The notes under the pieces were generated by a model. That model had not been told where the DNA came from. It did no database searches and worked only from the letters and a program-made list of their open reading frames with translations. Positions 9,001 through 60,988 of a DNA stretch of 64,000 nt are shown here, piece after piece. The position numbers and the translations under genes are program-made. Source of the stretch: an uncultured bacterium (GTDB taxonomy: Bacteria > Verrucomicrobiota > Verrucomicrobiia > Verrucomicrobiales > DEV007); the NCBI GenBank assembly GCA_963977015.1, contig CAXBMO010000003.1:256001-320000 (forward strand). The letters run 5' to 3'. Each line of letters opens with the position of its first letter. Position 1 is the first letter of the stretch.

Positions 9001-12000
9001 TTATGGGTTACGGCTCCAAAAGTGCCGTTGGTGATGACGAGCTGATCCCCCTGGCCTGCGACCGGGTCCATCCCGTTCACCGTGATCCTTGCCTGAAGCA
9101 ATTTCGGGTCGGAGTAATCGAGGATAAAGGTGTCGTTGCCTTCGCCGCCTGCGGCTCCGTCGTCACCGTTGATTTCGATGTGGGCCGCGGCGAGTGGCCG
9201 GGTCGCAATCACCTCGGGCGTGCCATTGGGATCCTTGACGACTTGCACCGTGTTACCCACGACTTGCACGGCGAACTCGGTGGGTCCATCCAGACCATCC
9301 ACGACTACCGGAGCCGGATTCGCGGTATCGAAGAACGAAAGGGTGACATCGTTGCCGTCGCCACCGTTGTAGGAAATGTAGGCTTTGATGTCGCCACTCG
9401 CCAGAGAGGTGACTTCATCGCCGTCAGCCAAGCCGGTAAACGTTCCGGTAACCGCGCTGCCGCTTTGGTTGTCGATCAGGGTCAGTTGAACCCCGTCCGC
9501 CGCGGCAAATCCCCCGATCGTGATCGGGTTCAAGGTGACATCCGTCAAATTCACGGTGTCGGTGACGACAACGGCGTCATTACTGCCGCTGTTCAACTCT
9601 GCGGTAAAGGTGCTGCTTGCGGTGCTGGTCAGGCTGGCCATCGCCAAGACTCCCGCCACGCCGGTTCCTGCCGGATCGATCTCGCCTCCGTCCGCGATGA
9701 CGTTGCCACTGACGACACCGGCACCACCAAGAACACCGTCGGTTTCAACCGTGACGTCGCCGGTTCCGGTCGCCGAACCCGTTGCGTTTGCGGCCAGCAG
9801 AGTGCCTGACTGGATGGTCGTTCCACCACTGTAGGTGTTCGCACCGGTCAGAGTAAGGGTGCCTCCTCCCTGCTGAACGAGACTGTTGTCTGGTTGGTAG
9901 GTACCAACCAATTCCTGACCAGGCATGATCACGTTGTCCAGCCGGACCCAGCCCCAGCCACCATCGAAGAAATCGACGAATTCAGCGGTGTAGATCGCAT
10001 CAGGATCCGCGATGTAAAGCGCAGTGAGATCCATGGTTAAACCATCGCTGTTCGCGCCGTCACTGACATTTGCCCGAGACATCACGTAATCGCCCGTAGC
10101 CACGTTGCGGATGGCCAGTCCCTGAAAGCCGCTCTGACCTTGCGAACTCGCAGGCAGATCGGCCAAATTGTCCACATCTGCACCACCGATGTCCCGCCCG
10201 TTGCTGTCGCCGCCGTGAAGATCGAAGGTGATGACGTTGTTGATGCCGTCGAGTTTGAACTCCGGAGAAACCAACCGCAGCGTTGGATGGGCTGCGTCGC
10301 CTCCAGAACTGCCGCCAAGGGTGCCGCCCGATGTGGCGACGGCTTCAACTTCGCCGGATCTGTCTGAGGCAAGGAAGCCGGACGCGAGGGTCCATCCGCC
10401 GGTGTCGCCCGTACTCGTGTTGTCAAAGGTAAACGTGCCCGCAAAGGGAGCCAGAATATCTTGGGAACCGGTATTTCCGCTGATCACGCCGGTCATGACG
10501 ATGTCGCCAGGGCCGTAGACGTTGAGTTTGGAAAATTCCAGATCGATGTCGGCTGCGATCGTCAGGGTATCGGCCAAGGAGCCAATGCCAATTTCACCGA
10601 GGGATGCGAGTTCCGCGACGAGCGTCGTCGTGGCCTCGATCGTGTTGTTACCCGCGATGTTCACCAAGGCTCCACTCCCCGTGCCGTTCCCATTCAGAGT
10701 CATGGTTTCGCCAGCGATGGTGAGAGCCGAACCGGCCAACGTATCGTCCAGAGCAAGAACAGCCCCGTCGGCTACGGTCGTAGTCCCCGAGGAATCGCCC
10801 ACCGCAGTGTTGCTTGCGGCAACCAGGGTTCCTTCCGTCACGGAGTAGCTCGCTTCGTAAAGGGAGTTGTCCCCCGCCAAGGTCGCCGTTCCGGTTCCCG
10901 TTTTGATCAGTTCTTTGATCGGGTCCGTCACCAAGACCAAATCGACTCCGCTCTGCATGTTTCCGGGATCCAGGATTTGCCATCCGTTTCCATCTCCCAC
11001 GTCGATCTGAGGCTGAAAATTCGACCCGCCGCCGCCTTCACGGTGGCGGAGTTTGATATCGTAGATTCCAGGAGCGATCGATACGGTGACTTCGGGGACA
11101 TTGGTGGTGTAGCCGTCCTGATTGAGAATTAATTCACCGCTTTCGAAGGCTCCATCGCCGCTGGTGTCGAGGTAGATCTGAAGTCCGTCATCCGCCGTGA
11201 TGCCGGTAAACTTGACGTCGTATGGCGCTCCGGCATTGAGGTCCGGAATCACCAGTTTTCCGATGAACGTGGCTGCGTAATTGTCGTTCCGGTTCAGATC
11301 CGAGAACATGGCGTTGAAGTCCGCGTCACCGTTCAGATCCAACAAATCACTGGTCAAGATTTCCTGGATCTGATCGGCATCTCCCGGTTCACCGTAGGCA
11401 TTGTTGGCAAAGACGTAACCGCGGATGCCAGAGACCACCCCCGATACCGTTTCGCCCGAAATGTCGCTGTTCACGACCACATTCCCAGCCCCAGTCAGGT
11501 TCAATCTCGCGAATCCAACGTCCATGACGTGACTTCCCGCCGTTCCCAACGTGAGCGTTCCGGACTCCGAGGAAATGGTCAAGTCCAGCTCCGAAGGACT
11601 GGTGGATGCCGTGATGTTGCCCAAAAAGGCGTTGTCCCCGTCCAGATTCACGATCGTGCCGCTCCGAGTCGCATCCCTGCCATCCAGGCCGGAGATGTTT
11701 TCCCCGGTGACCGTGACTCCGCCACTGAACGCAATCGTCGCACCACTGGAAAGGTTCACCACATCGCTACCGGCATCGGGAACAGAATCCGAACCAAGTC
11801 CGAGCGCATTGTCGTGCCCCACGATGAGGGTGCCGCCCTCCACGTTGACCTCTCCGGTGTAGCTGTTGTCGCCGGAAAGCGAGATGGTTCCGGAGCCTGT
11901 CTTGGTGATGTCGTTGGAAAAAGCAGGGACTTGGAAGCTTCCCGCGATCGCGTATTTGCTGGCGAGATACGCCTCGACGGCCAACTTTTCGTTTACGCTC

Positions 12001-15000
12001 AACTGGTGATCGAACGCGATCACTTCGGCGGTATCGAACAGGGAGTTACTCCAGGCATCCGTTCGGTTGCCGACGATGTATTCCCGGACCTGAGTTCCGT
12101 TATTGGGCCCGGCCGCGACTTGGAGAACCATGTATTCGCCCATGCTGGCGTTCCCCGTGGTTGCCGACATGTCGAAATTACTGGCCGAGGGAATCTCAAC
12201 CCCGTTTCGGGTCACAGAAGCGGGCAGCTCGCTCCCCCAGAACCGGTCTTGGTTGCCCTCTAACATCCACATGCGGTCGTTATCGTCGCCGTCTTTGACG
12301 CCAATCGGAGCTCCCCAACTAGGACCAAAGGTGGTCCTGTTGTCTCCGGCCCGAAACACCAAATAGACGTCACCGGCGAAGTATTCTTTATTCGTCACGG
12401 CCGGATCAATCTGCAGATTCTCGTTGTTGGCGTCGAATCTGACGGCGGGCAACCCATTGATTTCGTTGGTCTCGAACGTGGGACTTCCCGTGTAGCTGAC
12501 CAGATGACGTCCATTGCCTGATTGATCGGCCCACGCGGTAACCACATCGCCATCGTTGAGACTCAGGGTCGAAGCATCGTACCAGGCTTGCAAACCATTG
12601 ATGTCACTCGGCGAAGCCACAAAGCCGGTATTGACGTCGCCGACAATGTCACCGGTGACAACGAAATCTCCGTCGCCGCTAAAAACCAGACTACCGAGCC
12701 CCATATCCAGTGGGTTGGCGATTGTGAGCCGCGCATCGGTTCCCGAACCGAGCTCTGAAGCGCCTCCTAAATTGAGGGTGAACGTCTCGCCCATCAACAC
12801 TTCGCCACTGACAAGGTCGAACTTACCGCCGTTGAGAGTGAGCGCATTCAGTGTCGAGGTGGCATCGAAAGTCACTGGGCCAATCGCCCCGAAGTCCAAC
12901 TCGAGGGCTTCACCGCTGTCGATTCCAAGACTGGTGGTACCTCCGAGACCATCCTCTTGATGAATCCGGACCGAACCGCCACCGAGCAGGAAGTTGCTCA
13001 TGGAATTGCTCTGGTGGAGATCCAACAGACCCGCACCCGATTTCGTCAGTTCAAAGCCCCCTGTGACGGCACCGGTGACGGTGAGCGAGACGTCATTGAC
13101 ATGGATTGACGCGTCACCGGTCATGGTGATCGACCCGTTGATGGTGTTGGAGTTGTTGTCGTTGCGAATGGCGCCCTCGGTTCCACGCCCATCGCCCTCA
13201 ATGAAGAAGTCCTTTTCGAACGTGCGACCGTTGCGCAAAACAAGGGTTCCTTCGGAACCCCGGATGTGGACGCTTCCCACATTGGAACCCAACCCATTTG
13301 CAGCGTGAACATCGAGCCGTCCCCAGACTTCGTGACCATCCGAGCCGTCACTTCCCACGCTGATGGTTCCGTGAAAATCAGGAATGCCGACTTCCATATC
13401 CACCCGGTCCGTGCCGCTAATTTGTAAGGTAGTGGTGCTGTCTCCGGTGATCGACGCACTGCTGCGAAAGTTGAGGCGATTATCGGCATCCAGCGTAAGC
13501 GTTTTGCCACTGGCGATGGAGATCACGCCAGCGTCGAACAACCATTCATTTCCGCCGGTTGAGCGGATTTCGGCATCGTCAACCACCGTTACGTTCGCAT
13601 TCCAGAACACGTTTCCGTCCGTTCCTTTCGTCAACGCCCCTTCGGAGTTGGCATTGCCAGATCCGCTAATGAAGATGTCCGAGGTGTAGGTTCCCGTTGC
13701 GGCAATTAGAGAACCTCCATTCTCCACCGTGATGGTTCCGTCTCCCAGAGAGGTGGGACCGGCCAGACTCAAGGTCGCGTCATCAGTAACCGTCGTGGTG
13801 CCGGAATAGGTATTGGCAGCTGTAAACTCAAAGACCGCGTTGCCTTCAAACGACAAGTCGGCTGCGGCTGTTTCCATCAGGCCTCCGAGGGTGACATTGA
13901 CAGCATTATTGCCGGCAAACGTCGCGTCACCTTGGACTTGCACTGAAGCCGCCGTCCACTTTTGACCGAAATCCGCTGAATTTGTGGTCACGGTGGCCCC
14001 GGCCGTGGTGACCAGGCTCGTGATCGTCGCCTCGCGGAACCCGGTGGAGAGATCGATGACGGATGCGTTCGAAACCGTGACGGTTCCATTGAAAACGCCC
14101 TGCGGAACGGCATCGGTTTTCAAATCAAAGCGCTCCCAGGTGGCACCGTTGTCGAAACTCACCTCCGGCTGAAGCCGTGAACTGCCACCGCCCTCCCGCG
14201 CTTGGATCGCCACGTTGTAAGTCTGGCCAGCGGTTACCGCTATGGCGCTCGTGGTGTAGGTTCCCCCACGATCCGCTCCGTAGGGATCTTCCGCGCCGGA
14301 ATCAAAGGTTCCATTCCCGTCTAGATCAATCCGAATCCGGTTGGCGTCATCCGCTGAGGTATGGCGAAAAAGGGTGGTCGTCGCCGTGACGGGAACGGTC
14401 AACCTCCCGACAAAGGTCTGCCCAAAACTGTTGGGATCCGAAGGATTCCCTGAATTGTTCAATCCAAGCAATTCATTCCCCCAAAACGCGAGGAAATCAG
14501 ACTCTTGAGCAAAATAGACCTCGCCCCCCAATATCTTGGTGGCTAATTGAGTCGAATCACCGGGTAAATCGGTATCGTTGCCATTAAAGAGATACGCCAT
14601 GGCACCTTGAATCTCCGTCGACGCCGCGGGAAGTAGCTCGAACGTCGCGCCGTCCAGATTCACATTCAAATTTCCCGCCGCGCCGCCGGATGCGTCCAGT
14701 ACCGCGCCAAACGTCGCTCCGGTTGTGGCCGTGACTGTGCCGGTGAGGTCGTTGTTCGGATTGTGAAGGTTCAACTGACCAGCCGTCAGGGTGAAATCCG
14801 TCGCGGTGTCGATTTCCACAAACAGATCAACCGTCCCGCCGCCGCTCATGGTAATCGTGTTGGCAATCAGCGTGCCGTTGGTGACGGTCAGCGTCCCCGA
14901 TGTCTCGAATTGGACTTCATCCACCGTGATCGTCGCCCCGCCCAAGTCGACCGTCCCATCAACCACGCGGAAAACCGCGACCTCTGTTCCCGTGTCCGGA

Positions 15001-17021
15001 ACCCCGTTGTTCTGATCCCAGTTCGTGGCATCAGACCAGTTTCCGTCCCCCAGATCATTATCCCAGACGTAAGTGCTGGATGTGACTGGATTCACGAAGG
15101 AAACCAAGCGATCCCCTGAACCCTCGGCATCCTCCGGGTCCGTTACTGTGAAGCGGATTTGTCGAGCGGTGGTTTCGGGAGTTCCGTTGGCGTTCACGTA
15201 GCTAACGGCTCGCAGGGCGGCCTCGTAATCCGCCACCGAAGCGGTGCCGGTGAAAACGATGCGATCCTGCGTCGTACTAGGATCCAACGTAATCCCTACC
15301 GGCAACGCTCCCGCCGCCAGAACATCCTCAGGGAGTCCCCCGCCGACGATCTCCACGACGGCACCCGCCAGATTTGCATCATTGCCATCGCTGACCGTGA
15401 TCCCGGCATCGATCACTTGAGCGCCAGAGGAAGGTGTGTAGGACAAATTGCCAGCGCTGGTCGTGACCACCGGTACTTCGTTGGCACTGCCGACCCAGAC
15501 TTCCACGTTTCGGATTGCGTAGCTACCCGTTCCCGGCCCGAACGTCCAATCCGGGGCACTCCCGCCGCTCGGACCGTATTGGTCCCCAATGCCTGCTCCG
15601 CCGCCACGAGTGATGCCGAAGAGCGTAGTGGCTTGCGTTTTCTCGGGATTGGTGAAGGCAAAAACCTGAAATGAACCGTGTCCGCTGCCGGTGCCGCCTC
15701 CCCCGTCCTTCCAGTCGTAACGGCTGTCGCTGGAGCCATACAATCCACCTCCATTTCCACCGTAGTTGCTCGCCCAAAACTCGATAATGCCGTCCGCGTA
15801 TTCGCCCGCAACCACATTCGGGTGATTGGTCTCGACGTGCAGATTGGTGACCAGGGTGCCCGGCTCCAAAATATTGCTGCCCGCCTTGGGAACGCCAAGC
15901 TTGGTCGGGTCGGTCGCCCCGCCGGACTGGAAATTGGAGACATCCATGGATACCCAGACCCAATAGTCTGTCGCCCCGCCGGATGCGCCTTGCCCCAACT
16001 CGATGAAATAGCCAACCCGGTCGTAGCTGTAGGTGCCGGCGGTGATGTCCGATTGGATGGCTGACGCGTTGTCTTTCGTATACGCGTCCTCAAAATCGAA
16101 CTGACCGTCATCCACCGCATACAACAACCGAACCCCGCTCATCCCGGTATCGCTAACCACTCCCCCCGGAGCGGCCGTCAAGTAATGCGCGTGATCCAGC
16201 GAATGAACCTCCGAGTCCTGAGCCAGGTCCGCCTCAGGGAGTCGACGGACGCCCTCGGACAGCACCTCGTCCATGAGTTCACTTCCGTGGTGGGAAATCC
16301 CGAGAATGTGCCCCTGCTCATGCATCAGTGTGGTGAGCAAATCGATCCGGTTCTCAGACTCGGGTGCCATCGCAACCATCTGAGTGTTCCCGTCGCTCAA
16401 GGCGGAGAATTCTTCGTCATCTAGAGGCGTTTCATCAACGAACCATGCCTTACCTCCAGCGTCGATATCGATCGTGATGACATTCCCCTCTGTCGCGCCG
16501 AGGTAATTTCCGGGCAAATCCACCAGCTGGTATACGACATTAGCCAACGCAAGAGATTGCTCCTCGCTCAGCCCTGTCAGGCGCCAACGTTCCGCAGCGG
16601 CGGCAGCAACCTGTTCCAGTTGTTCAGGCGTCAAAGTTTCAATTGCCGAATCAGCGGACACAACGATTTCGCCTTCCGCCTCTCCTGCCACCTCATCATC
16701 CCCATCGGTCGCCAATTCGCTCTCTTCTGCCAAAACATAAACCTCCGTTTCGAGCAACGCCTCCGAAGTGCTATCGAGTGCTGCCGGTGCCTCTGCCTGA
16801 GATTCCGCCGACGCCTGATTATCAGCTGCGGTATCCGGTGCTTCCTGAGAAGGTTCTGGAGTCGATTCCGATTCTGCGTCCGGCACACCTCCATCCACAG
16901 GAGCGGCAGAGTAAAGAATGCGTGGCTCGAGGTTTTCGAGGAGCATTTTGCCATCGGCAGACTTTTTGGGTTCGGATTTACCACGGCCCAAAAGGCGGTC
17001 CAGGAAGGGGTTATGTTTCAT
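1..17021 (-). CDS. Giant LEPR-XLL-type surface/adhesin protein A (partial, 3' end outside the window, >5670 aa)
   Basis: Hand translation from ATG at 17021 gives MKHNPFLDRLLGRGKSEPKKSADGKMLLENLEPRILYSAAPV, paralogous to the starts of genes B and C. The same frame reads sensibly at 16290-16322 (HEQGHILGISH) and at the window edge (..IHVGGALTTTGGG). Its absence from the ORF track fits having no stop codon inside the window. It contains many K.G.GTLTL.G.NTY.G.T.V..G autotransporter-associated beta-strand repeats. Not every codon was checked by hand. Confidence 0.93.
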   Translation of the reverse strand, partial: MKHNPFLDRLLGRGKSEPKKSADGKMLLENLEPRILYSAAPVDGGVPDAESESTPEPSQEAPDTAADNQASAESQAEAPAALDSTSEALLETEVYVLAEESELATDGDDEVAGEAEGEIVVSADSAIETLTPEQLEQVAAAAAERWRLTGLSEEQSLALANVVYQLVDLPGNYLGATEGNVITIDIDAGGKAWFVDETPLDDEEFSALSDGNTQMVAMAPESENRIDLLTTLMHEQGHILGISHHGSELMDEVLSEGVRRLPEADLAQDSEVHSLDHAHYLTAAPGGVVSDTGMSGVRLLYAVDDGQFDFEDAYTKDNASAIQSDITAGTYSYDRVGYFIELGQGASGGATDYWVWVSMDVSNFQSGGATDPTKLGVPKAGSNILEPGTLVTNLHVETNHPNVVAGEYADGIIEFWASNYGGNGGGLYGSSDSRYDWKDGGGGTGSGHGSFQVFAFTNPEKTQATTLFGITRGGGAGIGDQYGPSGGSAPDWTFGPGTGSYAIRNVEVWVGSANEVPVVTTSAGNLSYTPSSGAQVIDAGITVSDGNDANLAGAVVEIVGGGLPEDVLAAGALPVGITLDPSTTQDRIVFTGTASVADYEAALRAVSYVNANGTPETTARQIRFTVTDPEDAEGSGDRLVSFVNPVTSSTYVWDNDLGDGNWSDATNWDQNNGVPDTGTEVAVFRVVDGTVDLGGATITVDEVQFETSGTLTVTNGTLIANTITMSGGGTVDLFVEIDTATDFTLTAGQLNLHNPNNDLTGTVTATTGATFGAVLDASGGAAGNLNVNLDGATFELLPAASTEIQGAMAYLFNGNDTDLPGDSTQLATKILGGEVYFAQESDFLAFWGNELLGLNNSGNPSDPNSFGQTFVGRLTVPVTATTTLFRHTSADDANRIRIDLDGNGTFDSGAEDPYGADRGGTYTTSAIAVTAGQTYNVAIQAREGGGSSRLQPEVSFDNGATWERFDLKTDAVPQGVFNGTVTVSNASVIDLSTGFREATITSLVTTAGATVTTNSADFGQKWTAASVQVQGDATFAGNNAVNVTLGGLMETAAADLSFEGNAVFEFTAANTYSGTTTVTDDATLSLAGPTSLGDGTITVENGGSLIAATGTYTSDIFISGSGNANSEGALTKGTDGNVFWNANVTVVDDAEIRSTGGNEWLFDAGVISIASGKTLTLDADNRLNFRSSASITGDSTTTLQISGTDRVDMEVGIPDFHGTISVGSDGSDGHEVWGRLDVHAANGLGSNVGSVHIRGSEGTLVLRNGRTFEKDFFIEGDGRGTEGAIRNDNNSNTINGSITMTGDASIHVNDVSLTVTGAVTGGFELTKSGAGLLDLHQSNSMSNFLLGGGSVRIHQEDGLGGTTSLGIDSGEALELDFGAIGPVTFDATSTLNALTLNGGKFDLVSGEVLMGETFTLNLGGASELGSGTDARLTIANPLDMGLGSLVFSGDGDFVVTGDIVGDVNTGFVASPSDINGLQAWYDASTLSLNDGDVVTAWADQSGNGRHLVSYTGSPTFETNEINGLPAVRFDANNENLQIDPAVTNKEYFAGDVYLVFRAGDNRTTFGPSWGAPIGVKDGDDNDRMWMLEGNQDRFWGSELPASVTRNGVEIPSASNFDMSATTGNASMGEYMVLQVAAGPNNGTQVREYIVGNRTDAWSNSLFDTAEVIAFDHQLSVNEKLAVEAYLASKYAIAGSFQVPAFSNDITKTGSGTISLSGDNSYTGEVNVEGGTLIVGHDNALGLGSDSVPDAGSDVVNLSSGATIAFSGGVTVTGENISGLDGRDATRSGTIVNLDGDNAFLGNITASTSPSELDLTISSESGTLTLGTAGSHVMDVGFARLNLTGAGNVVVNSDISGETVSGVVSGIRGYVFANNAYGEPGDADQIQEILTSDLLDLNGDADFNAMFSDLNRNDNYAATFIGKLVIPDLNAGAPYDVKFTGITADDGLQIYLDTSGDGAFESGELILNQDGYTTNVPEVTVSIAPGIYDIKLRHREGGGGSNFQPQIDVGDGNGWQILDPGNMQSGVDLVLVTDPIKELIKTGTGTATLAGDNSLYEASYSVTEGTLVAASNTAVGDSSGTTTVADGAVLALDDTLAGSALTIAGETMTLNGNGTGSGALVNIAGNNTIEATTTLVAELASLGEIGIGSLADTLTIAADIDLEFSKLNVYGPGDIVMTGVISGNTGSQDILAPFAGTFTFDNTSTGDTGGWTLASGFLASDRSGEVEAVATSGGTLGGSSGGDAAHPTLRLVSPEFKLDGINNVITFDLHGGDSNGRDIGGADVDNLADLPASSQGQSGFQGLAIRNVATGDYVMSRANVSDGANSDGLTMDLTALYIADPDAIYTAEFVDFFDGGWGWVRLDNVIMPGQELVGTYQPDNSLVQQGGGTLTLTGANTYSGGTTIQSGTLLAANATGSATGTGDVTVETDGVLGGAGVVSGNVIADGGEIDPAGTGVAGVLAMASLTSTASSTFTAELNSGSNDAVVVTDTVNLTDVTLNPITIGGFAAADGVQLTLIDNQSGSAVTGTFTGLADGDEVTSLASGDIKAYISYNGGDGNDVTLSFFDTANPAPVVVDGLDGPTEFAVQVVGNTVQVVKDPNGTPEVIATRPLAAAHIEINGDDGAAGGEGNDTFILDYSDPKLLQARITVNGMDPVAGQGDQLVITNGTFGAVTHNLIAGDSGNLDLDGDGITDLTYTGLEPVDMTGSTVDDLIFNLPAGTDNARLTQNSGTGELTLESTDSPVHFELTTFTAPSGSVTINGGVGDTLTIANDLDLGAATFTVNLPSINLDADVVTTGNQTYNGAVIVDSATGLTAVTVTFSDTVNLNSQILTLDVSGTGVMASSMNGTVNAGGSLVMNGTGDLTISGTMTGNTFTGLINAGSVELVDHTNDLGDLGGSSWTVEAGATLTAHIDGNDSSLGHENVAINLNGGILELDDLNQASGILTTDSFAGAATQDNANGVYDNSGSNDSRLGDFGGGGNDTGDVPIDGFTGRWDTDWNLDGGTGGRTSYVRINSGSLTFTAAPDYTPGTGNSLVNYHKANDNSNLARLMDLGDSDATDEYWFSGLLEAPTVGGGTIFGEFVLNFGSEANLDRSVRLGFDTAGNAILEAADGSSTQTVTGTAFSAATTHLIVGVIDVNRTGDDTITYFLDPTDVTTRAQIAATAAQTLNVTHDVVRSGDTLNQFRFQGHKGGSDNGDQNAGILFDDIRFAGSQGELFGFIAPVAPQVGTVAHDVTMTSDSTISMLSGLPGAVLGDLVVTGGADRTLSVEAADAGQNLEFTNTLMSGAATEEVTISMTGNPQVTLNNVSGDPGFTASGSGTVFLPTANTYTGITTIKAGATIQLGNDAGLGVEGTIDSGTVIESGGTLDINGQRAGATGNEFVQVEGAGVGGQGAIVNTGAGQISAFRNITLTNDATFGAENRWDMRASGGASVFDMAGFNLTKIGASELVIASTDIQNPGDVEITEGIFRIEGAVSFNGTGTITVAGGADLDFWDNNEAQAVNILLQDGGDITVNGSSSGVGPTLNGSVTLVGGTGTILTDERGLIIDGIVTGAGTLRKTGNNTLTLTNSLNDFSGDADVTNGTLLVTVDGALGNTSGATNVSSGGTLEISGAVDLTIAETINIAGLGESGSGALRSSGGDTTIGAAVTVNLTDDATIRSVGGTLTLDTGLDTLDHVLELDGTGDFVVNGIISGLAAGGLEKGGTGTATLTSQNTYLGQTSIDSGTLIVTRDGGLGASGGAGTTVETGSALYFDGGFDYTTLEAITVSGTAEGGTVGNLSGNNSFDGSIQVMSDSDPVVGTFTGGDNGEGLDLLGDFLYAVNVRGTAELPVGDANFTTEGNEPNVTIIANSDVLAWKTPNFGASANDDNLDVIMQSIRHGGSGGATMDVEFNGLTVGEPYKAQLMFYEENANRTFDIYLDGKLLIEEYAAGVSTNVGSVFSYEFIATATSHTFQLGGAGDDNPVLQAVTLEQNTGYAGAIGTAHLTAVAGELTLNGAVNLDISGIDVTGAGNVSIHGDVSGTGPGSTITKLGAGELTLAGNNSYEGETTVSAGTLVASHDNALGSLAGGTTVASGATLALDNQGGAGLTIAEDLTIIGNGVGGTGVIRNDVGSNTLTGTIDVMGVGSLGAGHATIASDADTLTIAGDATFAQLTFDGDGDSVVNGQLMNGFSAEVLLSQNFENFGDGPDGIGASQTLIEGWVNDTTDDVDWVSDKGGTGSGDTGPSVDHTLGTTSGTYMYVEASGASAGGKTARMISPQIDLTGFTAAQLDFFYHMWGNTIGTLSVQASTDDGATWSGDLFSLTGEQQENQAESYLQAIVDLTPFVGSSNVRLQVTNVTGSTYSSDVAVDDFRVTALSAIQHPGEVVKSGTGTLTLTNANTYSGVTTVAEGTLAVANDNALGTLDAGTIVADGAVLALDNTIPATNLTIAENITLGADATNPGVLRNVVGDNTVSGNLFAEASATGEIRIESLADTLTISGDVSLEVAGITIDGDGDTVVSGDILAGTEVVNVYDATVIADDPLIYWRFGDADQSNGATAVNAATQASTLGTAGNGTYLDTSGTIDPAADSPIAGGDAIAIRGDLKEGVGRSFTANFPGTTATFEGWFRGDADPHAGGSYDPALFSYEGSGAGGSGNEFIAIISGNNLDIVANGATSSTSITKGELFNGNWRHLAITFDSSGTGSGSASIYLDGQFKETVTNNSWDADLSSSGQFVAGWEQDGALNNNGQTFQGFVGDMAEVAIYGAALDATTIENHYNQGLVTPVTPNNTLTKDGVGTLTLTGTNTYAGTTTVSVGTLQVDGGSITQTDSVVMEAGILQIINDGNVTVNNAVTNGVGEGQLLVDDGTMTVGNGFDVDDLRVGYETGTATLTVSDGDVAIGDGDGQFLIGYRDDGTPSGDTVGTVDFSGADSVIILVDDVLAGYSADPSRASVGGSKGTLTLSSVGDNTVVADNVRLGYTTSANNQAVRTSLHLGGADNTFNVDTFVVGDLKSPATVDIVSGGTFTLRGNSNAETDLRIGDNNDAPGTGTNPQSSHLDLSGGTFNATLDQLAIGLHNNGSGSGKGELTFEAGTVSANAIVLADTDIGGTSSNDAATQGTINLNGGVLQFGTLSQGGGTSAFNWSAGTIQNLTGQDLTNVDVDINLVGTGTQIILIDAGQSGEFQTAAEIIGGTAGGTLVKNGAGSLTLQGASTYVSATDVEAGILLADNAAGSATGSGNVTVRNAGTTLGGDGAVAGTVTSVGGTVSPELGLAEDLGTGSLTLDSASTLTFQINGLTPGVNAGYDQLDVTGTVDLNSDAGTGATLNLTLNPGVNPGDGAIFVLIDNDGDGTTPGDTVSGAFAGLPNGAALTLNDGTNDYVFTIHYDKETAESDTNGNNVVLVSHGIAETSVELVSNGSTLDLVITDINQESADQIDVSVQTIDTVDYYVIKDTNSPSLSMSTSIAAADVNRVSENEIHVRVSPVTGGLIVNSDFTGDVGDNGTDSFTFSGPAPITFAGDVTIQAETINIGADVTSAGEQTFDGAVTLTSAVTLAGTNITFEGKLDSDSEGTKRALVVNTSGDGVTTFGSTVGGVFDLASLTTNADGSVVLAGSVTTSGSQTYNDAVSLSGNRTLSGGSVNLIGAVTSGGNNLTVSAGTIDIQGGVGGGGGNILLTATSAGIHVGGALTTTGGG
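2750..3485 (-). other. LamG/concanavalin-A-like domain within gene A (approximate bounds)
   Basis: Translation YDATVIADDPLIYWRFGD...NWRHLAITFD...IYLDGQ...FVGDMAEVAIYGAALDATTIENHY matches the Laminin-G3-like pattern. Confidence 0.8.
3962..4484 (-). other. MAM domain within gene A (approximate bounds)
   Basis: DDVDW...TGSGDTGPSVDHT.GTTSGTYMYVEAS...ARMISP..D......LDFFYHMWGNTIGTLSV...DVAVDDFRV is the typical MAM signature. Confidence 0.85.
10990..11430 (-). other. PA14-like domain within gene A (a second copy lies at about 14150-14600)
   Basis: NYAATFIGKLVIP...TADDGLQIYLD...GIYDIKLRHREGGGG. The second copy reads GQTFVGRLTVP...SADDANRIRID...GQTYNVAIQAREGGG. Both have the DD dipeptide and E.GG motif of PA14 domains. 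Confidence 0.75.
11950..12600 (-). other. LamG-like domain within gene A (approximate bounds)
   Basis: GLQAWYDAS...VTAWADQSGNG...PTF....INGLPAVRFD...AEVIAFDHQLS..EKLAVEAYLASKY. Confidence 0.7.
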
Positions 17022-17095: not shown

Positions 17096-17539
17096 TTAGG
17101 CACGAAAAAAGCCTGCATGTGGCTTAGTCGTACATTGCAGGCTGTTCGCTGAATCTTGGTTCCAAAAGGAAAGTGAAAAAGAGGGTTTGCTTCCTCGGGG
17201 CTGAAAATTCCCGCCAAAAAGCAGGGCGTAGCGCCTACGCATTCCGGAAAGAGTTCGCCCAACCGCATCGGCTCGTCGGCGAATCTGGCTGGAAATCGTC
17301 GAAACCCTTCTCTCCACGAAACGGAATTCTCCGATCTCGAAATGAGGCAACCACGAGAAAAAACAGATTGATTGTCCAGGCGCCGGAGCCGTGTCCGTCG
17401 ATTCGCGCTCCGGTGAAGGCTCCGACGAGAAGACTTCTGGCAGATCTCCCACCGCATCCTCATCCACCAACAGGGACCGGTTCGGCACAGGGGCTGCGAA
17501 AACCGTCCAAGTGGATAATTGAGGTGTGGAGATTACCAT
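17096..17539 (-). CDS. Leader protein A (147 aa), unknown family, paralog of 38225..38734 and 58231..58734
   Basis: Gap-free alignment of about 110 residues with the two paralogs: MV.S, W11, DED, PERE, CF[FY]SWL, RRA[DN]..GR, Y..LFGG. Conserved residues use synonymous codons (DED = GAT GAG GAT here, GAC GAA GAC in the others). Confidence 0.75.
   Translation of the reverse strand: MVISTPQLSTWTVFAAPVPNRSLLVDEDAVGDLPEVFSSEPSPERESTDTAPAPGQSICFFSWLPHFEIGEFRFVERRVSTISSQIRRRADAVGRTLSGMRRRYALLFGGNFQPRGSKPSFSLSFWNQDSANSLQCTTKPHAGFFRA
17105..17143 (-). terminator. Intrinsic terminator-like hairpin in the leader of gene A (putative attenuator)
   Basis: Minus strand reads AGCCTGC-AATGTACGACTAAGCCACAT-GCAGGC-TTTTTT. 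The loop can also pair ATGT with ACAT. It ends about 83 nt before the ATG of gene A. Confidence 0.7.
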
Positions 17540-17623
17540 TTCTGTAAGCTTTTATAGCTATCCAGCCTGCCAATTTGGTGAATCTGGCACCGAAGCGCAG
17601 GCATCACGATTGACTAAGGGCAC

Positions 17624-17770: not shown

Positions 17771-20700
17771 CTATTGCTCCAACTGAAGGATGGCGTCTTC
17801 GGGGTTGGTGGCGTCGATGATCAATCCGTAGATATCCCCCAGGGTCAGCTCTTCCTCCGTGCTCAATCCCGGAATCAAGCCGCCTCGGAAGCTTCCGGCC
17901 CGGAAGATGGACGAACTCCCTCCTTCCATCGCGAATATCGGCGAGACTTCCTGAATCGTAATGCTGTAGACGCGGTCTTCCAACGTCACCCCGGACAGGG
18001 ATGCCGACCAGTTGCCCGCCGCATCGGCTTGAACGGTCGTCGTGTAACTGAAACCACCAGCTCCATCGCTGATCGTCACGACAATCTGAGCGCCCACCGC
18101 TGAGGTGCCGGCGAAGAACGGCGTCAGCGAGAATGCCGGCGGCAAGGTTGGCAACACGCTGGATTCCCCACTCCGGATCGTTGACGGATCAATGACCACT
18201 CCCTCGGGAGTGATCAACTGTCCGTTGAGGAACTGGTAACCGGAACTGCCATCCAGCACCTCATCGAGACGCACCCCGGCAAAGACGCCGGAGTCGCCAA
18301 AGCTGTTCAGAAGGCTCTGCAAATTGCTCAATTCTCCAGCCGCACTTTCTTCCCCGGCAGGAGTCGTTCCCGTTGCCGTCGCCGGTGTATCCCCGGTATT
18401 GGTCCCGGCTGCGGACGCCGGTTTGGTCTTGCCTTCCTGGATCACCGAAACCTGCAGCGCATTGCTTCGGTCGGTGCCGTCTTGAACTTCGACCACGAAC
18501 CACCTCGTTCCCGCGGCCGGATCGCTAACGTCCTTATTGCTGTAGGCCACCGCGCGCAAGGCTTGTTCCATCGCCTTGGACGACACCCCGCCTGGTCCCG
18601 CCGAAATGGTCAGGGTGCCGGAGCTTCGATCGAATCTTTGGCTCAACCCGGCCGGCAAGGCGATCGCAGAAAGGCGGTCCTCGTCCGGCTGATAGCCGCC
18701 GTGAATCTGAATGGTGGCCGATATCACCAAGTTGGCTTGGGTAACCTGGATGTTCGGGAAAAGCGCAATCGGTCCCTGCCCCACCCCGTGGACCAGGCTG
18801 TCACGGATGCTGACACCGAGCAGGACCGGCACCAGATTGTCGGATTCGATGCTGGTGAAGTGAACGGGCAGCAAAGCCGGATTGGCGGCGGGGAAGGTGT
18901 AGTTGCCTTCGCCGGATCCGGTCGAATTAAGCTGGGGGTCGGGCCCCAGAACCACCAGTGCGTCGCCGGGCAACGTCGTCGGATCGAGCCCGTGAACGGT
19001 GATTTCCGTAGTTTCGCTCGGTTGGACGCGGAAGGCGTCTTCTGCAGTGCCGCCGTAGATCGTTACCGCTGCGGCATTGACCGTACCGAGCCAGTTCACG
19101 AAAACTCCGTCTGCTTCCGGGGTGGTGCTGTTACTATGGTCGGCATAGACGGTAATGCTTCCAACCCCGGCATCCAGAGCCGCCGTGCTCAGCAGCGTGA
19201 AATTGCCCGCCGTCGTCAGGATCTGATCGCCGGTCGTGGTGATGTCGACTCCAATGTCCAGGGACGCGCCGCTGGTCACGTTGAGGCCGCCCAGATTCAG
19301 CGCGCTTGCGAAGGTGGTGACGCCGGTGCTGACCGTGGTCAGGTCAAACGCACCGCCGATCGCCTGAGTGGACAGAGTTCCTCCGATTAACGACACATGA
19401 TCCGTCAACGTGATGGCGCCGCCGTAAGTTTGCGCCCCGGATGTGGCCACATTTCCTCCCAGCTCGCTTACGCCGGTCACGTCGACCGAAGCGGCGCTGA
19501 TCGTCGATTCACTATCAATCCGGTCGGCGCGAAGAACGCCCACTCCACTGATTGCTTCTGCAACGCCGGCGCCTCCGCTCAAGGTCAGGTTGTTCCCGCT
19601 ACCGGCTACCGTGTTCGCAAAGTCGACTCCTTCACCGTCCGAATCGGTATCCACAGCCGTCAGGGACACATTCGCAGTCAGGGTAACCGGTCCGTTGAAC
19701 TCCTGTTCGCCTCCGGTCATCAGATTGGCGCCAAGGTTGATGCTGCCGGCATTCACCGTCAATCTCCCGGCCAAGCTCGAAGCCGCGGTGAAATCGACTC
19801 GATCCGCCGAAACCACCTCCAGATCATTGAACACACCGCTGTCCAGGGTGCCGGCGGTGAGCGTCACACTGTCGCCCGCTCCGCGAAAGACAATGTCGTG
19901 CTTCCCATCGGGATTGGCGTCTCCGCTGTCGTTGTCGACCCCCGCTCCGTTGGTCAAAACCGAATTCGCGATGCTTCGAAGTAGCGTGCCGTTCACGCTG
20001 ATCTCCAGGTTCCCGCAGTTCATCACAATACTGGCCGTATCCGGTGAAAACGAAGCCGGGTCGCCGCCAAATCCCGGAGGGAACACCTTGTCCGTTTCGA
20101 TCTCGATTGCCCCTTTACCGCTCACGGTGATTGACACCGTTGCAGTATGGGTTGCCGATTCATCGTCACTGATGGTGTAGGTGAAGGTGTCGACAATGGT
20201 TTCCCCCTCGGCGAGGGTCTGGAGGTAGGCTGATTCCCGAGGGTCGTAGCTGAAGCCGCCATCCGGATCGACTGAAACCGCCGCGCCGTACTGGCTGAGC
20301 GGGTCAAAGTCTGAAACCAGAACATTCGTTCCGACCACGTCCCCGGCATCCGCGTCGGAGTCATTCGCCAGCAACCCTTCGGCCACCGAAACGGTCAACT
20401 TGGTGTCTTCGTCGGTTGCTCCACTGTCGTTGGCCGCCACGGGGTCGTCATTCCTTCCCTGGACTTCGATCGTCAGTATACCCGTATCTTCGGCCCCGGC
20501 CTGATACCCATTGATCACCAGATTATCCAAACGACTAATGTAGCCTGAGACTCCCGAATTATCCGACCAGGTGAACCGGAACGTGACCGGAGATGAGACG
20601 TCCCGGAACTCATCGCCTAGCTCCAACTCATAGGCGGGATAGTTGATGAAGGAATCGTTTCGCGTTGTCGGGTTGAATGAGCCTAACACTGGATTGCTAC

Positions 20701-23700
20701 TTCCGAAGTCGCCAACACTCGACTGAAAATAGAGATGGCTGTCGAAGGTTCCGTTCGAGATTCCCGCTTCGAACTCAATTGACGTCAGGGTCACGGATTC
20801 ACCGATAGCCGGTGTGACGATAAATTCGAAATAGTTGGTACCGGTCCCGTCCAGCAGGTTGTCAAGCGCGGCATCCTCGCTGCCTGGCGCCGCGCTCGCC
20901 CGAATCAACGCGGTTTTTGAAGATCCGGAGACGAAGATCTCTCCTGAACTTCCTTTGGCCTGCAGAGATACCGATACAAGATCGGCAGCTTCGCTGTCCG
21001 GAGCGATGTTCTGGGTGCTGGAGGAAGGGTTCAGGTCGAACCGCGCCAGCTCCTCCGTGTTGGCTATCGTATAGGTGAATTCCTCGTCTGCGGTGTCTCC
21101 CGAATTCAGGGAATCTGACGCACCGGGATCCACCGTGTAGGAGTAACTCCCGTCCGGATTAATCGTCAACTGCCCGTAGGCGCCGTCAACAACGGTTGCT
21201 CCATTGACCCTGCCGCCTGCATTGGAACCAACAGGCGTCCCGCTCCCGGTGTATTCGGCCTGCGTAACCACCACGCTGCCATTTCCGGCTGCTGGGTCGT
21301 CGTCACCATCAACATCCAGGTCCGCTCCGTCATTCGGAGAAACTCCGTCCCCCCCCATCACATTGCCTTTGGTTCCGCTGGAGGTCTCACCGTCTCCACC
21401 GACGACGACCGTCTGGTTATTTTCCCCACCGGGTTCGACCGCGAAGTTTTCATCGTCTACAATCTGCGGTGCGTCGTTGGCCCCTTGGATCGTTACGGTG
21501 AGGGTTGCAAACTGGGAATTGATCCCGGTGACGTCCAGCATCTCCCCACCCAGGAGAATGTTGTCGAGGAGTGAATCCCGGTAGGCCGCGATCCCCAGTG
21601 ACGTAATTTCCTGTTGCGCGGCTATCGCCGTCCCGTGCAACGCTCCTGAATAGTTCGCCTCGGGTAGTTCGGGATTGTCCGTTAAATTCGGATCCACCCA
21701 AACATCAATCGTTTCGACACCATCGACCAAATTCAGGCGTCCAACAACGAGGTGCGTCTGGCCGGGCGTAAACAAGCCTTCCCTTACTTCAAAACTACCT
21801 TCGGTCACCCCGACAACGAGATCCCCTCCGCTGGCGAACACCCCAAAGTCATTTTCTGGCTCGTAATTCAGAATGCCATTCGCGTCATTGGCTTTTGAAT
21901 TGAAAGTGATTCCCCCGACGCCGTCGTCGTTCTGATCATCCACGTTCTGCACCAGGAAGGAGAACCAGACTTCGCTGGCCATCGGTTCCTGCAGATTTGC
22001 AACCACCTGCCGCGGACCGCCGTAATCACCCTCCGCGGCCTTGTCCGATGGCGGGATGTTGTAAAGCTCGGAAACCAATCCGTCGCTCACCGCATTGATC
22101 GTAGATGTACCTCCCCACGCGCCGTTCAGGCCTTGACCGTGGGTGGTCCCGATACTGGCGCCGTCAGACAGGGATGAAAAATCAACTTTCACACTCGGGT
22201 TCGCCGTCGTGGTATCCTGCACCTTGTAGACAAATGTGTCGGTCAAGGTGTCGCCCGAATCCAGCGCCTGGACCGCCGCATTGGCATCATCAACCGTGTA
22301 GGTGAACGACCCATTGGCTCCGATCTGAATCGACCCAAAGTTGCCCGTGGCGGTATCTCCCGCCGCGGTCGTGGCGTCGCCGGAATCACTGCCGCTTCCG
22401 AAAGCGACGACCGACAAATTCCCGACATCGTCGGTATCGATATCACTATCGTTGCTCAACACATTTCCCGTCCCGGTGAAACCCGTCCGGATTCCCGCCT
22501 CCACCGCGATGGACGTGTCGCTGACTGCAACCGGAATGTCGTTCGTTCCCCGAACTTCGATGGCAAGGTTGCCCGTGTCCGTGCTGACTTCACCCACGAT
22601 TCCGCGGACCACCAGATTGTCCAACCGGTTGATGAACTCGTTGTCGATGGAATCGTCCGAAAAGGTGAAGCGGAACGTCACCGGGCCGGTCAGGTTCTGG
22701 AATTCGCTTCCCAGGTTCAAAACGGACGTCTCTCGCGTGACAGCATTTACGTCCCCCACGTCCTGGAACGGTTGAACGAATGCGTCGGCATCATGCAACG
22801 CCGTCTGAAAATTGTCGAGGCTCGACGACCAATGCACGCGGGAGCTTGTCCCGCTGGTTACCGTCCCCGCATTGTTGGCAAAATGCTCGAATTCCAGCGC
22901 CGTCAGCGAAATCGTCTCACCGGGATTCGGCGTAATGGTGAACTCAAAGTAGTCATCGTCCGTCAAGGCTGATGCCTGGTCCGAAGCAGTGCCATCGCCA
23001 CGAATCAAGGCAGTGTAGGTGGAACCGGAAATGAAGGTATCGCCTGTATTCGCAGTCGACGATACGCTGACGCTTCCTGCATCGATGGCAGCATGTGGCG
23101 AACTCGGCGAACCATTTCCCTGAAACGCATAGGTCGTCAGCGTTGTTTCGGTGAGTCCGGGCTGATCGGAAACGGTGTAGACGAATTCCTCAACCGGTGC
23201 GTCTCCCGCGTCCAACTGATCTGCCACGGTTTCATCAACCGTGTAGGTGTAGCTGCCATCGGACCAGATTTCGAGGGAACCATAGGCTCCATCGACGCGG
23301 ACCGAACCGTCCACAGCCACCGCGCCGCCAAAATAGGTCGCGCCGCTAAACGGAGCCCCGGAAAACGTGACATTGGTCACATAGAGTTTCTCCCTAACCT
23401 TCAGATCGGCGTCGGTGTCGGGAACATCGCCCGCACTGGCTCCGCTGCCGCCGCCCAACGATCCGATCACGTTGCCGCTGGGATTGATCCCCAAAATCCC
23501 GTTTTCGACGCCCCCGGCTTCCACCGCGATATTCGTGTCGTCGTTAGCGACGGGCGCATCGTTGTTCCCCTGGACCGTAATCGTCAGAGTATCGGAGTCA
23601 CTGGCCGACTGAACTCCGGCGATGTAAACCGGATCGACCGCATTCGCGACACCACTGCTGTAACGCAGATAGCGGAAGCTCTCCACGCCAAACCGGTCGG

Positions 23701-38206: not shown

Positions 38207-38224
38207 TTAGGTCATGGCGATCAT

Positions 38225-38734
38225 TCAATCGCCGGAGTTGGAGAGGGAATTGAAAGGAACAATCCAGATTGGGTCGGATTGTCTGACACAAAAAAAGCCT
38301 GCATTTAGCTGAAGAGCACCTGGCAGGCTGTTCGCGGGAACTAACGGGTTTTGATGAGACACAAGTGGACGAAGGGGGGAGGTTCTCTCCCACGGCCAGG
38401 ATTTACCCCCGAAAAGCAGGGAGTAACGCCGCAGTAGTCCGAAGAGAGTTCGCCCGATGGTATTGGCCCGCCGGAAGGTCTGACTGCAAATTGCCGAAAC
38501 CCGCCTTTCCCAAATGCGCAACTGTGCGCCGTCCAATTGGAGCAGCCACGAGAAAAAACAGACCGGTCGCCACAAAACCGCCGACAGCACTGTTGACTCG
38601 CGTTCCGGGGGAGCACTCGAGGTCAACACGTCAGACTGTTCCGTAACCGAGTCTTCGTCCAAAAACGTGACACGTTCCGGCACAGAGGCTACGGAAAGGA
38701 TCCAAGTTGGTAGATGTTCGCAAGAAATAACCAT
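38225..38734 (-). CDS. Leader protein B (169 aa), unknown family
   Basis: Paralog of the other two leader ORFs with the same motifs at the same positions. Its stop codon is 18 nt upstream of the gene B ATG. Confidence 0.75.
   Translation of the reverse strand: MVISCEHLPTWILSVASVPERVTFLDEDSVTEQSDVLTSSAPPERESTVLSAVLWRPVCFFSWLLQLDGAQLRIWERRVSAICSQTFRRANTIGRTLFGLLRRYSLLFGGKSWPWERTSPLRPLVSHQNPLVPANSLPGALQLNAGFFCVRQSDPIWIVPFNSLSNSGD
38290..38329 (-). terminator. Intrinsic terminator-like hairpin in the leader of gene B (putative attenuator)
   Basis: Minus strand reads AGCCTGC-CAGGTGCTCTTCAGCTAAAT-GCAGGC-TTTTTTT. Confidence 0.7.
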
Positions 38735-38843
38735 GTCAGCGAGCTTCCAAAGTTATTCAGCCCTGCCAATTTCGTGAATCCAGACACCCGCCTCTTCATC
38801 ACACGTGAAACTATCTTTGCCATTTGCCTCAACCCAAGGGACT

Positions 38844-58230: not shown

Positions 58231-58734
58231 TCAATCGCTGGAGTCGGAAAGGGAGGGAGTAAAAAGTCCGGTTTGATTTTCGGACACAAAAAGAGCCTGC
58301 TCGAAGCTGGGATGCGGATGGCAGGCTCTTGGCGGAACCCTGCGGTTCCGAATGAGAGAAAAATTCAAGGAATTGATCGTTCTTCTCCGGCGGCCAAGAT
58401 TCCCTCCAAAAAGCCAAGAGTAATCCCGCAACAATCCGGAGATAAATCGTCCGATCGCATCAGCCCGCCGGAAGGCCTGACTGAAAATCGCCGAAATCAG
58501 CTTTTGCGTGATGCGCAACCGCCCATTCTCAAATTGGGGCAGCCACGAGTAAAAGCAGACCGTTTTCCCGACACCTGACAACATGGTCGTTTTCTCACGC
58601 TCAGGAGGCGCTTCCGAGGTTGCAACTTCCGGCAGGGCAGCCACCGAGTCTTCGTCCACAAAAATGACGCGTTCCGGCTCGCTAACACCGCAAATCACCC
58701 AGGTTGTAAGTTGTATCGAGGAGGTTACCATCAT
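58231..58734 (-). CDS. Leader protein C (167 aa; the Met at 58731 aligns with the paralog starts), unknown family
   Basis: Paralog of the other two leader ORFs. Its stop codon is 18 nt upstream of the gene C ATG. Confidence 0.75.
   Translation of the reverse strand: MMVTSSIQLTTWVICGVSEPERVIFVDEDSVAALPEVATSEAPPEREKTTMLSGVGKTVCFYSWLPQFENGRLRITQKLISAIFSQAFRRADAIGRFISGLLRDYSWLFGGNLGRRRRTINSLNFSLIRNRRVPPRACHPHPSFEQALFVSENQTGLFTPSLSDSSD
58288..58330 (-). terminator. Intrinsic terminator-like hairpin in the leader of gene C (putative attenuator)
   Basis: Minus strand reads AAGAGCCTGC-CATCCGCATCCCAGCTTCGA-GCAGGCTCTT-TTT. The stem is extended on both arms relative to copies A and B. Confidence 0.7.
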
Positions 58735-60118: not shown

Positions 60119-60191
60119 TGGACGGACTGGGACTCGAACCCAGGACCAACCGGTTAAAAGCCGGTTGCTCTACCAACTGAGCTATCCGTCC
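60119..60191 (-). tRNA. tRNA-Lys (anticodon TTT)
   Basis: GGACGGA TA GCTC AGTTGGTA GAGC A ACCGG CT-TTT-AA CCGGT TGGTC CTGGG TTCGAGT CCCAG TCCGTCC A. All four stems pair. It is followed by CCT, so a full CCA end is not encoded. Confidence 0.97.
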
Positions 60192-60753: not shown

Positions 60754-60988
60754 GTCGTAACTGAGGGGTAAGTTTGCGTGGTTGGGTTTCTCCCCAAGAA
60801 ACGACATCGACTTCGACACTCAGCTCCTGGCGACAAACCTCTAAGGCGCAAAAAAGCCCATTTTTCCGTAAAAGCAAAGAAAGTTAGCAATAATGCTATG
60901 GCGTAAAATGGCGAGTCTATTCTCACCTCACTCAAGTGGTCTCCTTCTTTGGGTGTGAGATCGTTCCCTTCGCGCTGACAGGCCATTT

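Follow-up and report, generated by a model that had tools for sequence, protein, structure and literature searches.

In the pyrBI leader of Escherichia coli, the open reading frame (ORF) extends through the terminator, a ribosome that follows the polymerase closely blocks the hairpin, and no antiterminator is needed. The signal in that system is a pause of the polymerase when UTP is scarce, and no conserved function is assigned to the peptide. SecM, MifM and VemP, by comparison, carry an N-terminal signal or membrane anchor, stall the ribosome a few codons before the end of their ORF, and open a hairpin that hides the next ribosome-binding site. Here, we describe a family of small ORFs that lie directly before giant genes in an uncultured Verrucomicrobiales DEV007 bacterium (GCA_963977015.1, contig CAXBMO010000003.1). 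Three of them were found in the window, which is the whole stretch of 64,000 nucleotides (nt) analysed (G000:C3:256001-320000). We favour, with moderate confidence and from sequence analysis, the reading that each small ORF is a translated leader gene, whose ribosomes would suppress an embedded terminator and hand over to the giant ORF. The regulatory principle is already known. Passages of published work describe coupled ribosomes that keep intrinsic-terminator hairpins from forming (PMC5021804) and, at the pil1 locus of Streptococcus gallolyticus, longer leader peptides that raise transcription through the ribosome destabilising a premature stem-loop terminator (Danne et al. 2014, PMC3894217). 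The unexplained conserved peptide is the variant added here.

The small ORFs of the window, designated A, B and C, are all carried by the minus strand, each located 5′ of a giant minus-strand ORF; the plus-strand translations at their coordinates contained many stops. In minus-strand order, the genes are small C (58734..58231), giant C, small B, giant B, small A and giant A. ORF A (17096..17539) encodes 147 amino acids (aa) followed by a stop. Its core, codons 1-110 up to an LFGG motif, occupies 17210-17539, and the remaining 17096-17209 form an unconserved tail. ORF B (38225..38734, 169 aa plus stop) has its core at 38405-38734, with a tail that continues through a hairpin to a TGA, and ORF C (58231..58734, 167 aa plus stop) has its core at 58402-58734, with a tail whose frame, compared with A, B and D, shifts immediately past LFGG. 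ORF D belongs to a fourth unit just beyond the window (142 aa, L004:1558-1986, minus strand) and has another giant gene behind it. Giant gene A (3..17021, minus strand) runs past the window edge, its whole stop-to-stop frame amounting to 8560 codons in the genome, and opens with a basic leader and the motif LEPRILYSAAP. Giant genes B (17771..38206, minus strand, 6811 aa) and C (38962..58212, minus strand, 6416 aa) share this N-terminal leader and contain PATR repeats, together with a Golvesin_C domain in B and Laminin_G_3 and cadherin-like domains in C.

The proteins encoded by A, B and C aligned without gaps from Met to LFGG, except for one additional Met in C, in agreement with the initial annotation, whose alignment to about residue 110 and coordinates were both correct. 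B and C were alike 44% identical to A, and 42 columns were invariant. In the DNA alignment, the conserved motifs were encoded by different synonymous codons, as that annotation had illustrated, and each of its examples was accurate: DED was written as GATGAGGAT or GACGAAGAC, PERE as CCGGAGCGCGAA, CCGGAACGCGAG and CCTGAGCGTGAG, and LFGG as CTTTTTGGCGGG, CTTTTCGGGGGT and CTTTTTGGAGGG. Third positions held most of the differences over the first 110 codons, with counts at codon positions 1/2/3 of 38/24/58, 42/31/57 and 31/31/45 for the three pairs. The ratio of nonsynonymous to synonymous substitution (dN/dS, by NG86) was 0.36, 0.25 and 0.43 for these pairs in frame, versus 1.03-1.76 in the two shifted frames. 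The core gave values of 0.17-0.43 in all eight pairs whose dS was below 2, namely the six within A-D together with C5-C23 and G1a-G1c. There were no indels within the 110 core codons, and several just beyond, some of which were not multiples of three. The lack of core indels, the third-position bias and the low dN/dS confined to this frame therefore bear out the claim of protein-level selection on the first 110 or so codons. The small ORFs are coding.

Beyond LFGG, dN/dS was 0.31-0.97 where computable, from alignments that were short and noisy. An alternative frame of C matched the tail section of the family profile (database of 100 sequences, E = 2.9e-5), so the tail of C is truly frameshifted, and the hairpin region translates as AGFF in A and B and as QALF in C. 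These observations, with the non-triplet indels, substantiate the proposal that the tail is free to vary, its reading frame included.

The family comprises 19 members, all of which (19/19 loci) precede giants opening with a LEPRILYSAAP-type motif, so that the proposed linkage of homologs to giant genes was upheld. The members are A-D, six very divergent copies elsewhere in the genome, and nine from three other genomes of its genus, each of the 19 having an intact frame. A six-frame search of the 95,795 open frames of the genome ranked the A-D copies first, followed by the alternative frame of C's tail and four frames with E values of 0.02-0.6, each of which lay directly upstream of another LEPR-type giant. 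Members on contigs C5 and C23 were recognised by eye and confirmed with a wider profile (E = 2e-30 and 3e-32). The genome contains 15 stop-to-stop frames longer than 2500 codons, the longest of 12,571, and the N-terminal motif LE[PA]R[ILV]L[YF][SD]A, mostly LEPRILYSAAP and located after a short basic stretch, occurs in 14 frames. A small ORF was found before 10 of these 14. For the other four (on C2, C7, C11 and C12), no small-ORF remnant was detected upstream (best E = 0.09, 12-sequence database), and no homolog preceded any of three frames of more than 2500 aa that lack the motif. Thus, the annotated position 'upstream of every giant gene' holds within the window (3/3) but not genome-wide (10/14 LEPR-type frames and 0/3 of the other frames). 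Two tandem giant frames on C14 (G000:C14:114064-151779, plus strand) each have their own small leader ORF.

Each ORF tail in the window contains a terminator-like hairpin on the minus strand. Hairpin A (17110..17143), with stem AGCCUGCA/UGCAGGCU, is followed by U6 at 17104-17109 and has a minimum free energy of -18.5 kcal/mol (z = -3.16); the TAA of ORF A lies 12 nt past the stem. Hairpin B (38296..38329) is followed by U7 (-18.9 kcal/mol, z = -2.33), and hairpin C (58292..58329), with a 9-bp stem, by U5 (-20.7 kcal/mol, z = -4.02). In A-D, the hairpin has the form AGCCUGC...GCAGGCU with five to seven U, 78-121 nt after the LFG codon. Across members, the hairpin starts 78-108 nt past that codon, outside the footprint of a ribosome at LFG. 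Divergent members carry unrelated stems at the equivalent place, for example GUCCUCUGG, GCCACCAA, AAGCGGA, GCCGUGC, AGACGGAA and CCCGCAA. Under strict criteria (an uninterrupted stem of 6 bp or more with 3 or more GC pairs, a T-run, and a 3′ end at +105 to +145 from LFG), hairpins were found in 13 of 16 members, versus 0.45 expected from dinucleotide-preserving shuffles. RNAfold predicted a GC-rich hairpin with a U-run in the remaining three, and in three members identified later. Free energies ranged from -13.5 to -22.6 kcal/mol among the 11 members measured.

In 16/16 members, the 5′ arm of the hairpin falls within the ORF, which in 15 of them spans the hairpin completely, the stop of D being located in the loop; in the three later members, the ORF likewise passes through the hairpin. 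Between LFG and the hairpin end, a single in-frame stop (that in the D loop) was found in 624 codons, compared with 25 stops in 1248 codons of the other two frames. Accordingly, 15/16 tails had no in-frame stop, versus 7/16 and 9/16 for the other frames. The small ORFs then end close to the giant gene. With the first nucleotide of the stop codon as its starting point, the gap between the small ORF and the giant's first ATG was -1 (an ATGA overlap) in 4 of 19 cases, at most 52 nt in 17 of 19, and 102 nt at its maximum. The distance from LFG to LEPR was 264-379 nt overall and 284-303 nt in 13/19. In unit B, the TGA is 21 nt before the giant ATG and in the same frame as the giant, with two stops between. 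In unit C, the tail remains open until 21 nt before the giant ATG despite the frameshift.

The junction of unit B (38204-38227, minus strand) reads TGA, then ATG-ATC-GCC-ATG-ACC-TAA, with the TAA abutting the giant ATG. A two-step relay of termination and reinitiation is possible on this sequence; in unit C, the spacing is equal, but the TGA is not followed by an ATG. A fusion of small ORF and giant by read-through was considered and rejected, as the two are in the same frame in just 4/10 of the genome's members, and two stops intervene in B and C.

No antiterminator pairing with the 5′ arm of the hairpin was detected beyond that of shuffled sequences in any of 11 members (z = -1.4 to +1.6), an absence that fits direct blocking by the ribosome. 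In spanning the terminator hairpin without an antiterminator structure, the leader ORF resembles that of pyrBI; it differs in that the peptide is conserved, and no U-rich pause region was identified. The arrangement also departs from the trp and his attenuators, having no exclusive antiterminator pairing (11/11) and long ORFs with a 110-codon core. No codon runs were visible in the leader alignments, whereas those attenuators have a regulatory run. The pil1 leader, as far as the passages on it extend, is similar in that an upstream ORF is translated into a premature terminator, with a large surface-adhesin locus depending on the extent of the leader (PMC3894217), and in that the peptide sequence of the distal leader part is irrelevant. 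Leader length at pil1 is set by phase variation of a GCAGA repeat according to the same passages (PMC3894217), while there is no repeat tract here. The present leaders further differ from what is described for pil1 in their conserved core of about 110 codons, in an end near the start of a single gene of 15-38 kb, and in occurring in up to 10 copies per genome.

The N-terminal half of the small protein, of about 60 residues, is acidic (pI about 4.1-4.6 in most members) and weakly conserved save for a P..E-type motif. In an SW motif, the S is invariant and the W nearly so. The spacer from SW to LFG is 40-46 residues in 16/16 members, with its length kept and its sequence not. This SW..LFGG half is mostly basic (pI 9-12 in most members, with G1a at 5.9). 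Of the later members, L046 has a spacing of 40 residues, L069 has SA for SW, and L047 has FF for LFG. The C-terminal motif is of the type LLxxYxxLFGG, with variants FERFYG and LFGN/D/C, and the GG is replaced by GN, GD, GC, GS or QG in 6 of 17 aligned members. The tail of 33-76 codons shows no peptide conservation, and the ORFs span 142-195 codons overall. No hydrophobic or transmembrane segment was found by hydropathy, the top Kyte-Doolittle 19-residue mean being at most 1.5 in 17/17 members, as the initial annotation had noted for transmembrane segments.

AlphaFold2, run with a 17-sequence alignment, gave a mean predicted local distance difference test score of 57.9 and a single helix at residues 69-107. 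As modelled, the small protein has no globular fold and no beta-grasp. Searches for known relatives returned nothing below E = 0.1 in NCBIfam (A, B and C) or below E = 0.07 in Pfam (17 members), and a profile search of PDB gave no match. In Protein Atlas, the best feature score was 0.83, for unnamed clusters, and the query gave no structural match with a template modelling score of at least 0.5. The absence of any match in Pfam, NCBIfam and PDB supports the description of an unrecognised protein family.

With SecM, MifM, VemP and the RAPP/RAGP class, the family shares a conserved C-terminal motif, a putative action in cis, and an ORF of 95-170 codons before an export-related gene. Unlike SecM, MifM and VemP, however, it has no hydrophobic segment, and its candidate motif is followed by a further 33-76 codons until the stop; the hairpin resembles a terminator and starts 78-108 nt downstream, and the next gene encodes a substrate rather than a machine component. 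The design is therefore not that of SecM, MifM or VemP, since there is no targeting segment and the hairpin is beyond the reach of a ribosome stalled at LFGG; nor is it that of the trp leader, as there is no antiterminator. The earlier suggestion of a cis-acting stalling peptide thus stands in part: the architecture favours a role in cis but not a design of the SecM or trp type.

The distribution of the family was narrow. Standard profile searches missed it, and it came into view only once the profile had been broadened with the family's own divergent paralogs. A narrow profile from the three window copies had no match in 60 related genomes. This was a failure of sensitivity, as each of the three other genomes in the genus yielded members to the widened profile of 11 sequences, at six loci in total (E = 5e-11 to 3.7e-4). 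Each of these six hits at E ≤ 3.7e-4 was followed by a LEPR-type ORF running to the locus end. Five weaker hits (E = 0.011-0.086) in four other genera had no LEPR-type ORF behind them and were discarded as noise. In protein collections, the narrow profile returned only the genome's own copies and a 191-aa metagenomic protein, P0005, both from 5.8 billion clustered proteins and from a full HMMER scan of 1.84 billion representatives. When proteins were searched with a 17-sequence profile, the sole hits were B itself and P0006, a near-identical counterpart of the L027 member. Pattern matching in metagenomes gave four contigs, all 100% identical to this genome and, for that reason, not independent.

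The giants are more widespread. A profile of their leader identified LEPR-type giants in 23/61 genomes and in 13/30 genera of the taxonomic family, one of them in an open frame of 18,596 codons (loci including L059, G071:C8:84194-87451). In 400 genomes of the phylum, LEPRILYSAAP back-translated into an exact pattern was not found; given that the profile finds the leader in 13/30 genera, this pattern was too strict. Twenty-seven leader-bearing loci were inspected from the giant side, 4 from the same genus and 23 from other genera. The small ORF was upstream in 4/4 of the former (E = 8e-30 to 3e-9, one repeating a known locus) and in 0/23 of the latter (best E = 0.55, 195 frames). A hairpin with a T-run at comparable distance was present in only 2 of 22 other-genus loci scanned. 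On the sequences searched, this is an orphan family restricted to one genus. As the LEPR-type giants reach further, the module is a one-genus innovation, placed before an older and more widespread class of giant genes.

In the reading that we favour, transcription would begin upstream of the small ORF, with leader and giant forming one module. The hairpin would act as a terminator. A ribosome close behind RNA polymerase would cover its 5′ arm, and the polymerase would continue into the 15-38 kb gene. The leader ribosome would then terminate at or just before the giant ATG and aid initiation there, by termination-reinitiation or by ATGA coupling, such that the two ORFs would be translationally coupled. 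If leader translation were absent, slow or stalled, the hairpin would form and transcription would stop before the giant gene. The module would in this way be a coupling checkpoint, at which a giant protein is committed only while ribosomes follow the polymerase. The conserved 110-residue part, which presumably has some role, would most plausibly tune this gate in cis through the nascent chain, one means being a regulated pause at Y..LFGG. Such a pause would leave the polymerase uncoupled about 100-130 nt ahead, where the hairpin forms. Because the tail is kept open without peptide conservation, through the hairpin and on to the next start, translation itself would be expected to be the selected function. 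That the C-terminal motif is the most conserved element would be expected if its partner were the ribosome.

Several points weigh against this reading. Delivery of a ribosome alone needs no 110 conserved codons, so the role of the peptide is unexplained, and a function in trans would be equally compatible with the observed selection. The statistics for open frames and hairpins are overstated, because the members are paralogs and orthologs rather than independent samples; moreover, off-frame stops are rare here (about 2% per codon), the other frames being open in 7/16 and 9/16 tails. The module is dispensable for making such giants, since it is absent at 4/14 in this genome and at 23/23 in other genera. 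Finally, a scan for sigma-70-like promoters detected none from hairpin to giant ATG in A, B and C, and upstream of the small ORFs only one weak site for A and none for B and C, using a consensus that may not suit the host.

A function in trans is possible, though we consider it on the doubtful side. The small protein would be a dedicated partner of the giant, for example an escort or chaperone for its N-terminal export leader, or an adaptor between giant and export machine. The overlapping ATGA sequences and the short gaps would give one small protein per giant, and the hairpin would only set transcript ratios. Such a partner would account for the purifying selection on the core and the linkage to LEPR-type giants at 19/19 loci, and the bipartite acidic and basic charge, combined with a single predicted helix, is typical of proteins whose folding takes place on a partner; translational coupling would also favour equal amounts of both proteins. 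However, the subfamilies are only 14-29% identical to B, compared with 32-69% for the leader of the giants, which is odd for a conserved interface. Transcripts terminated at the hairpin would also lack a stop codon and yield no normal product, as the stop is beyond the hairpin (or, in D, inside the loop), and the small ORF is absent from the same 4 giants of the genome and from all 23 other-genus giants inspected. Complex prediction for residues 1-115 of small protein B with the N-terminal 100 residues of the giant gave no verdict either way (score 0.00, in a run without controls). An unlikely further reading would bring the nascent chain back into cis, the small ORF being a monitoring substrate for a dedicated export route of the giants that engages it during the Y..LFGG pause. 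In that case, a degenerate version of the giants' export leader would sit in the acidic N-terminal half of the small protein. A free machine would pull, and the ribosome would resume, reach the polymerase at the hairpin and license the giant gene; with a saturated machine, the pause would persist and the polymerase would terminate. The logic would be like that of SecM, but tied to transcription termination and controlling the substrate rather than a machine component. Stretches at residues about 5-45 of the small proteins (PTVYYSTAE, EPVRIFAEAPE and VLTSSAPPE) resemble the leader of the giants (EPRILYSAAPVE). Comparing the two by profile gave a probability of 0.5% (E = 0.12), short of significance. 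When the members were scanned against that leader with BLOSUM scores and without gaps, 8/17 were in about the top 6% of 6541 control N-termini, but only 3/17 beat 95% of their own shuffles, and the best-match positions were inconsistent. The resemblance, if real, would suggest that the export route of the giants also recognises the small protein as a nascent chain.

The remaining alternatives are less probable still. Very long genes need antitermination, and a processive antiterminator like lambda N, improbable as we judge it, would bind the downstream hairpin RNA through its arginine-rich segment and render the polymerase resistant to termination over 15-38 kb. The small protein is indeed similar to N in size (about 110 residues), in being largely disordered and in having an arginine-rich helix in A-D, and every unit has its own hairpin sequence; as with lambda N and nut/boxB, a small disordered arginine-rich protein sits beside a hairpin, upstream of terminators and long-range transcription. 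Yet there is no sequence relationship to N, and the basic segment, located in the C-terminal half, is broken by prolines, not conserved as a helix, and not basic in some members (G1a, pI 5.9). The hairpin, unlike nut/boxB, has a U-run and is inside the ORF, and an antiterminator would have no need for its ORF to pass through its own target hairpin. Rather more remote is a precursor peptide with a conserved leader up to a double-glycine site and a hypervariable core, of the bacteriocin, NHLP or Nif11 type, or a ubiquitin-like protein trimmed after GG. The pattern is the same, with a conserved part ending exactly in GG, a variable C-terminal tail and many paralogs in the genome, but no leader family of Pfam or NCBIfam matched, GG is substituted in 6/17 members, and neither a beta-grasp nor another fold was predicted. 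The hairpin is kept while the frame shifts between close paralogs, so the tail peptide is not what is selected; the tail is constrained as RNA. Least credible of all is that the ORFs are untranslated and owe their similarity to a conserved 5′ untranslated RNA or to recent duplication. The four best copies are tandem paralogs, and the ORFs with their flanks have a mean column identity of 72% in the DNA alignment. Against this, dS is 0.8-1.6 with dN/dS of 0.17-0.43 in this frame only, the 110 codons contain no indel although the flanks hold many, none of the 19 frames is broken, and the divergent members share protein motifs only, at fixed spacing.

How bacteria manage the transcription and translation of a 15-40 kb gene without premature termination is largely unexplored, as is how they avoid beginning costly products that cannot be completed. 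If the translated-leader reading is true, the module would be a concrete device for the giant-gene problem, with a fixed anatomy and 19 natural variants, including tail frameshifts that preserve the open ORF. Should the conserved peptide be a regulated arrest or sensor element, it would represent a new class of regulatory nascent chain. Searches of the open-access literature found no account of a conserved small ORF with an embedded terminator before giant genes, which is not proof of absence. A SecA-like/HlyD/M50 module has been described from genomes in passages of Kamneva et al. 2015 (PMC4452313), whose section 17 is silent on any small ORF upstream. A preprint on giant genes (10.1101/2023.11.21.568195) likewise makes no mention of one in the passages covered, and the terms 'small protein', 'leader' and 'terminator' are absent from its main text.

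Upstream of ORF A, a DNA motif TTCAC-N-TTGGCA is located at 17568..17582 (minus strand), 43 nt before the ORF start, with the equivalent in unit B at 38764-38778. In the form [GT]TCAC-N(2-6)-TTGG[CT][AG], it occurs 43-113 nt before 4/10 small ORFs of the genome, including the two C14 members. This form has 246 matches genome-wide and was defined post hoc on these sequences, so the count is not independent. Strings like GTCAC..TTGGCA or TTGAC..GTCAC were observed upstream of same-genus members too. The motif may be part of a promoter or operator.

The array of giant genes is preceded on the same strand by a LuxR/GerE response regulator gene (59116-59772, minus strand). Further upstream are a tRNA gene (60119-60191, minus strand) and a gene for a stand-alone receiver-domain protein (60265-60819, minus strand). 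The LuxR/GerE regulator and the receiver-domain protein are possible regulators of the array. Within the giants themselves, a short Matrixin (Peptidase_M10) match was found near the N-terminus of B and C, at residues about 222-275. It scored 22.3 bits in giant B (about 37385-37540, minus strand), below the cut-off of 24, and 32.0 bits in giant C (about 57388-57540, minus strand), above it. The match points to a segment akin to a zinc protease after the leader of these two proteins. At the other end, the last 55 or so codons of giants B and C were 96% identical in DNA over 163 nt (17774-17936 versus 38971-39133), and the C-terminal 1.2 kb or so of the giants was about 80% identical in DNA. The C-termini of the giants are thus far closer to one another than are the small ORFs, which hints at gene conversion or strong constraint there.

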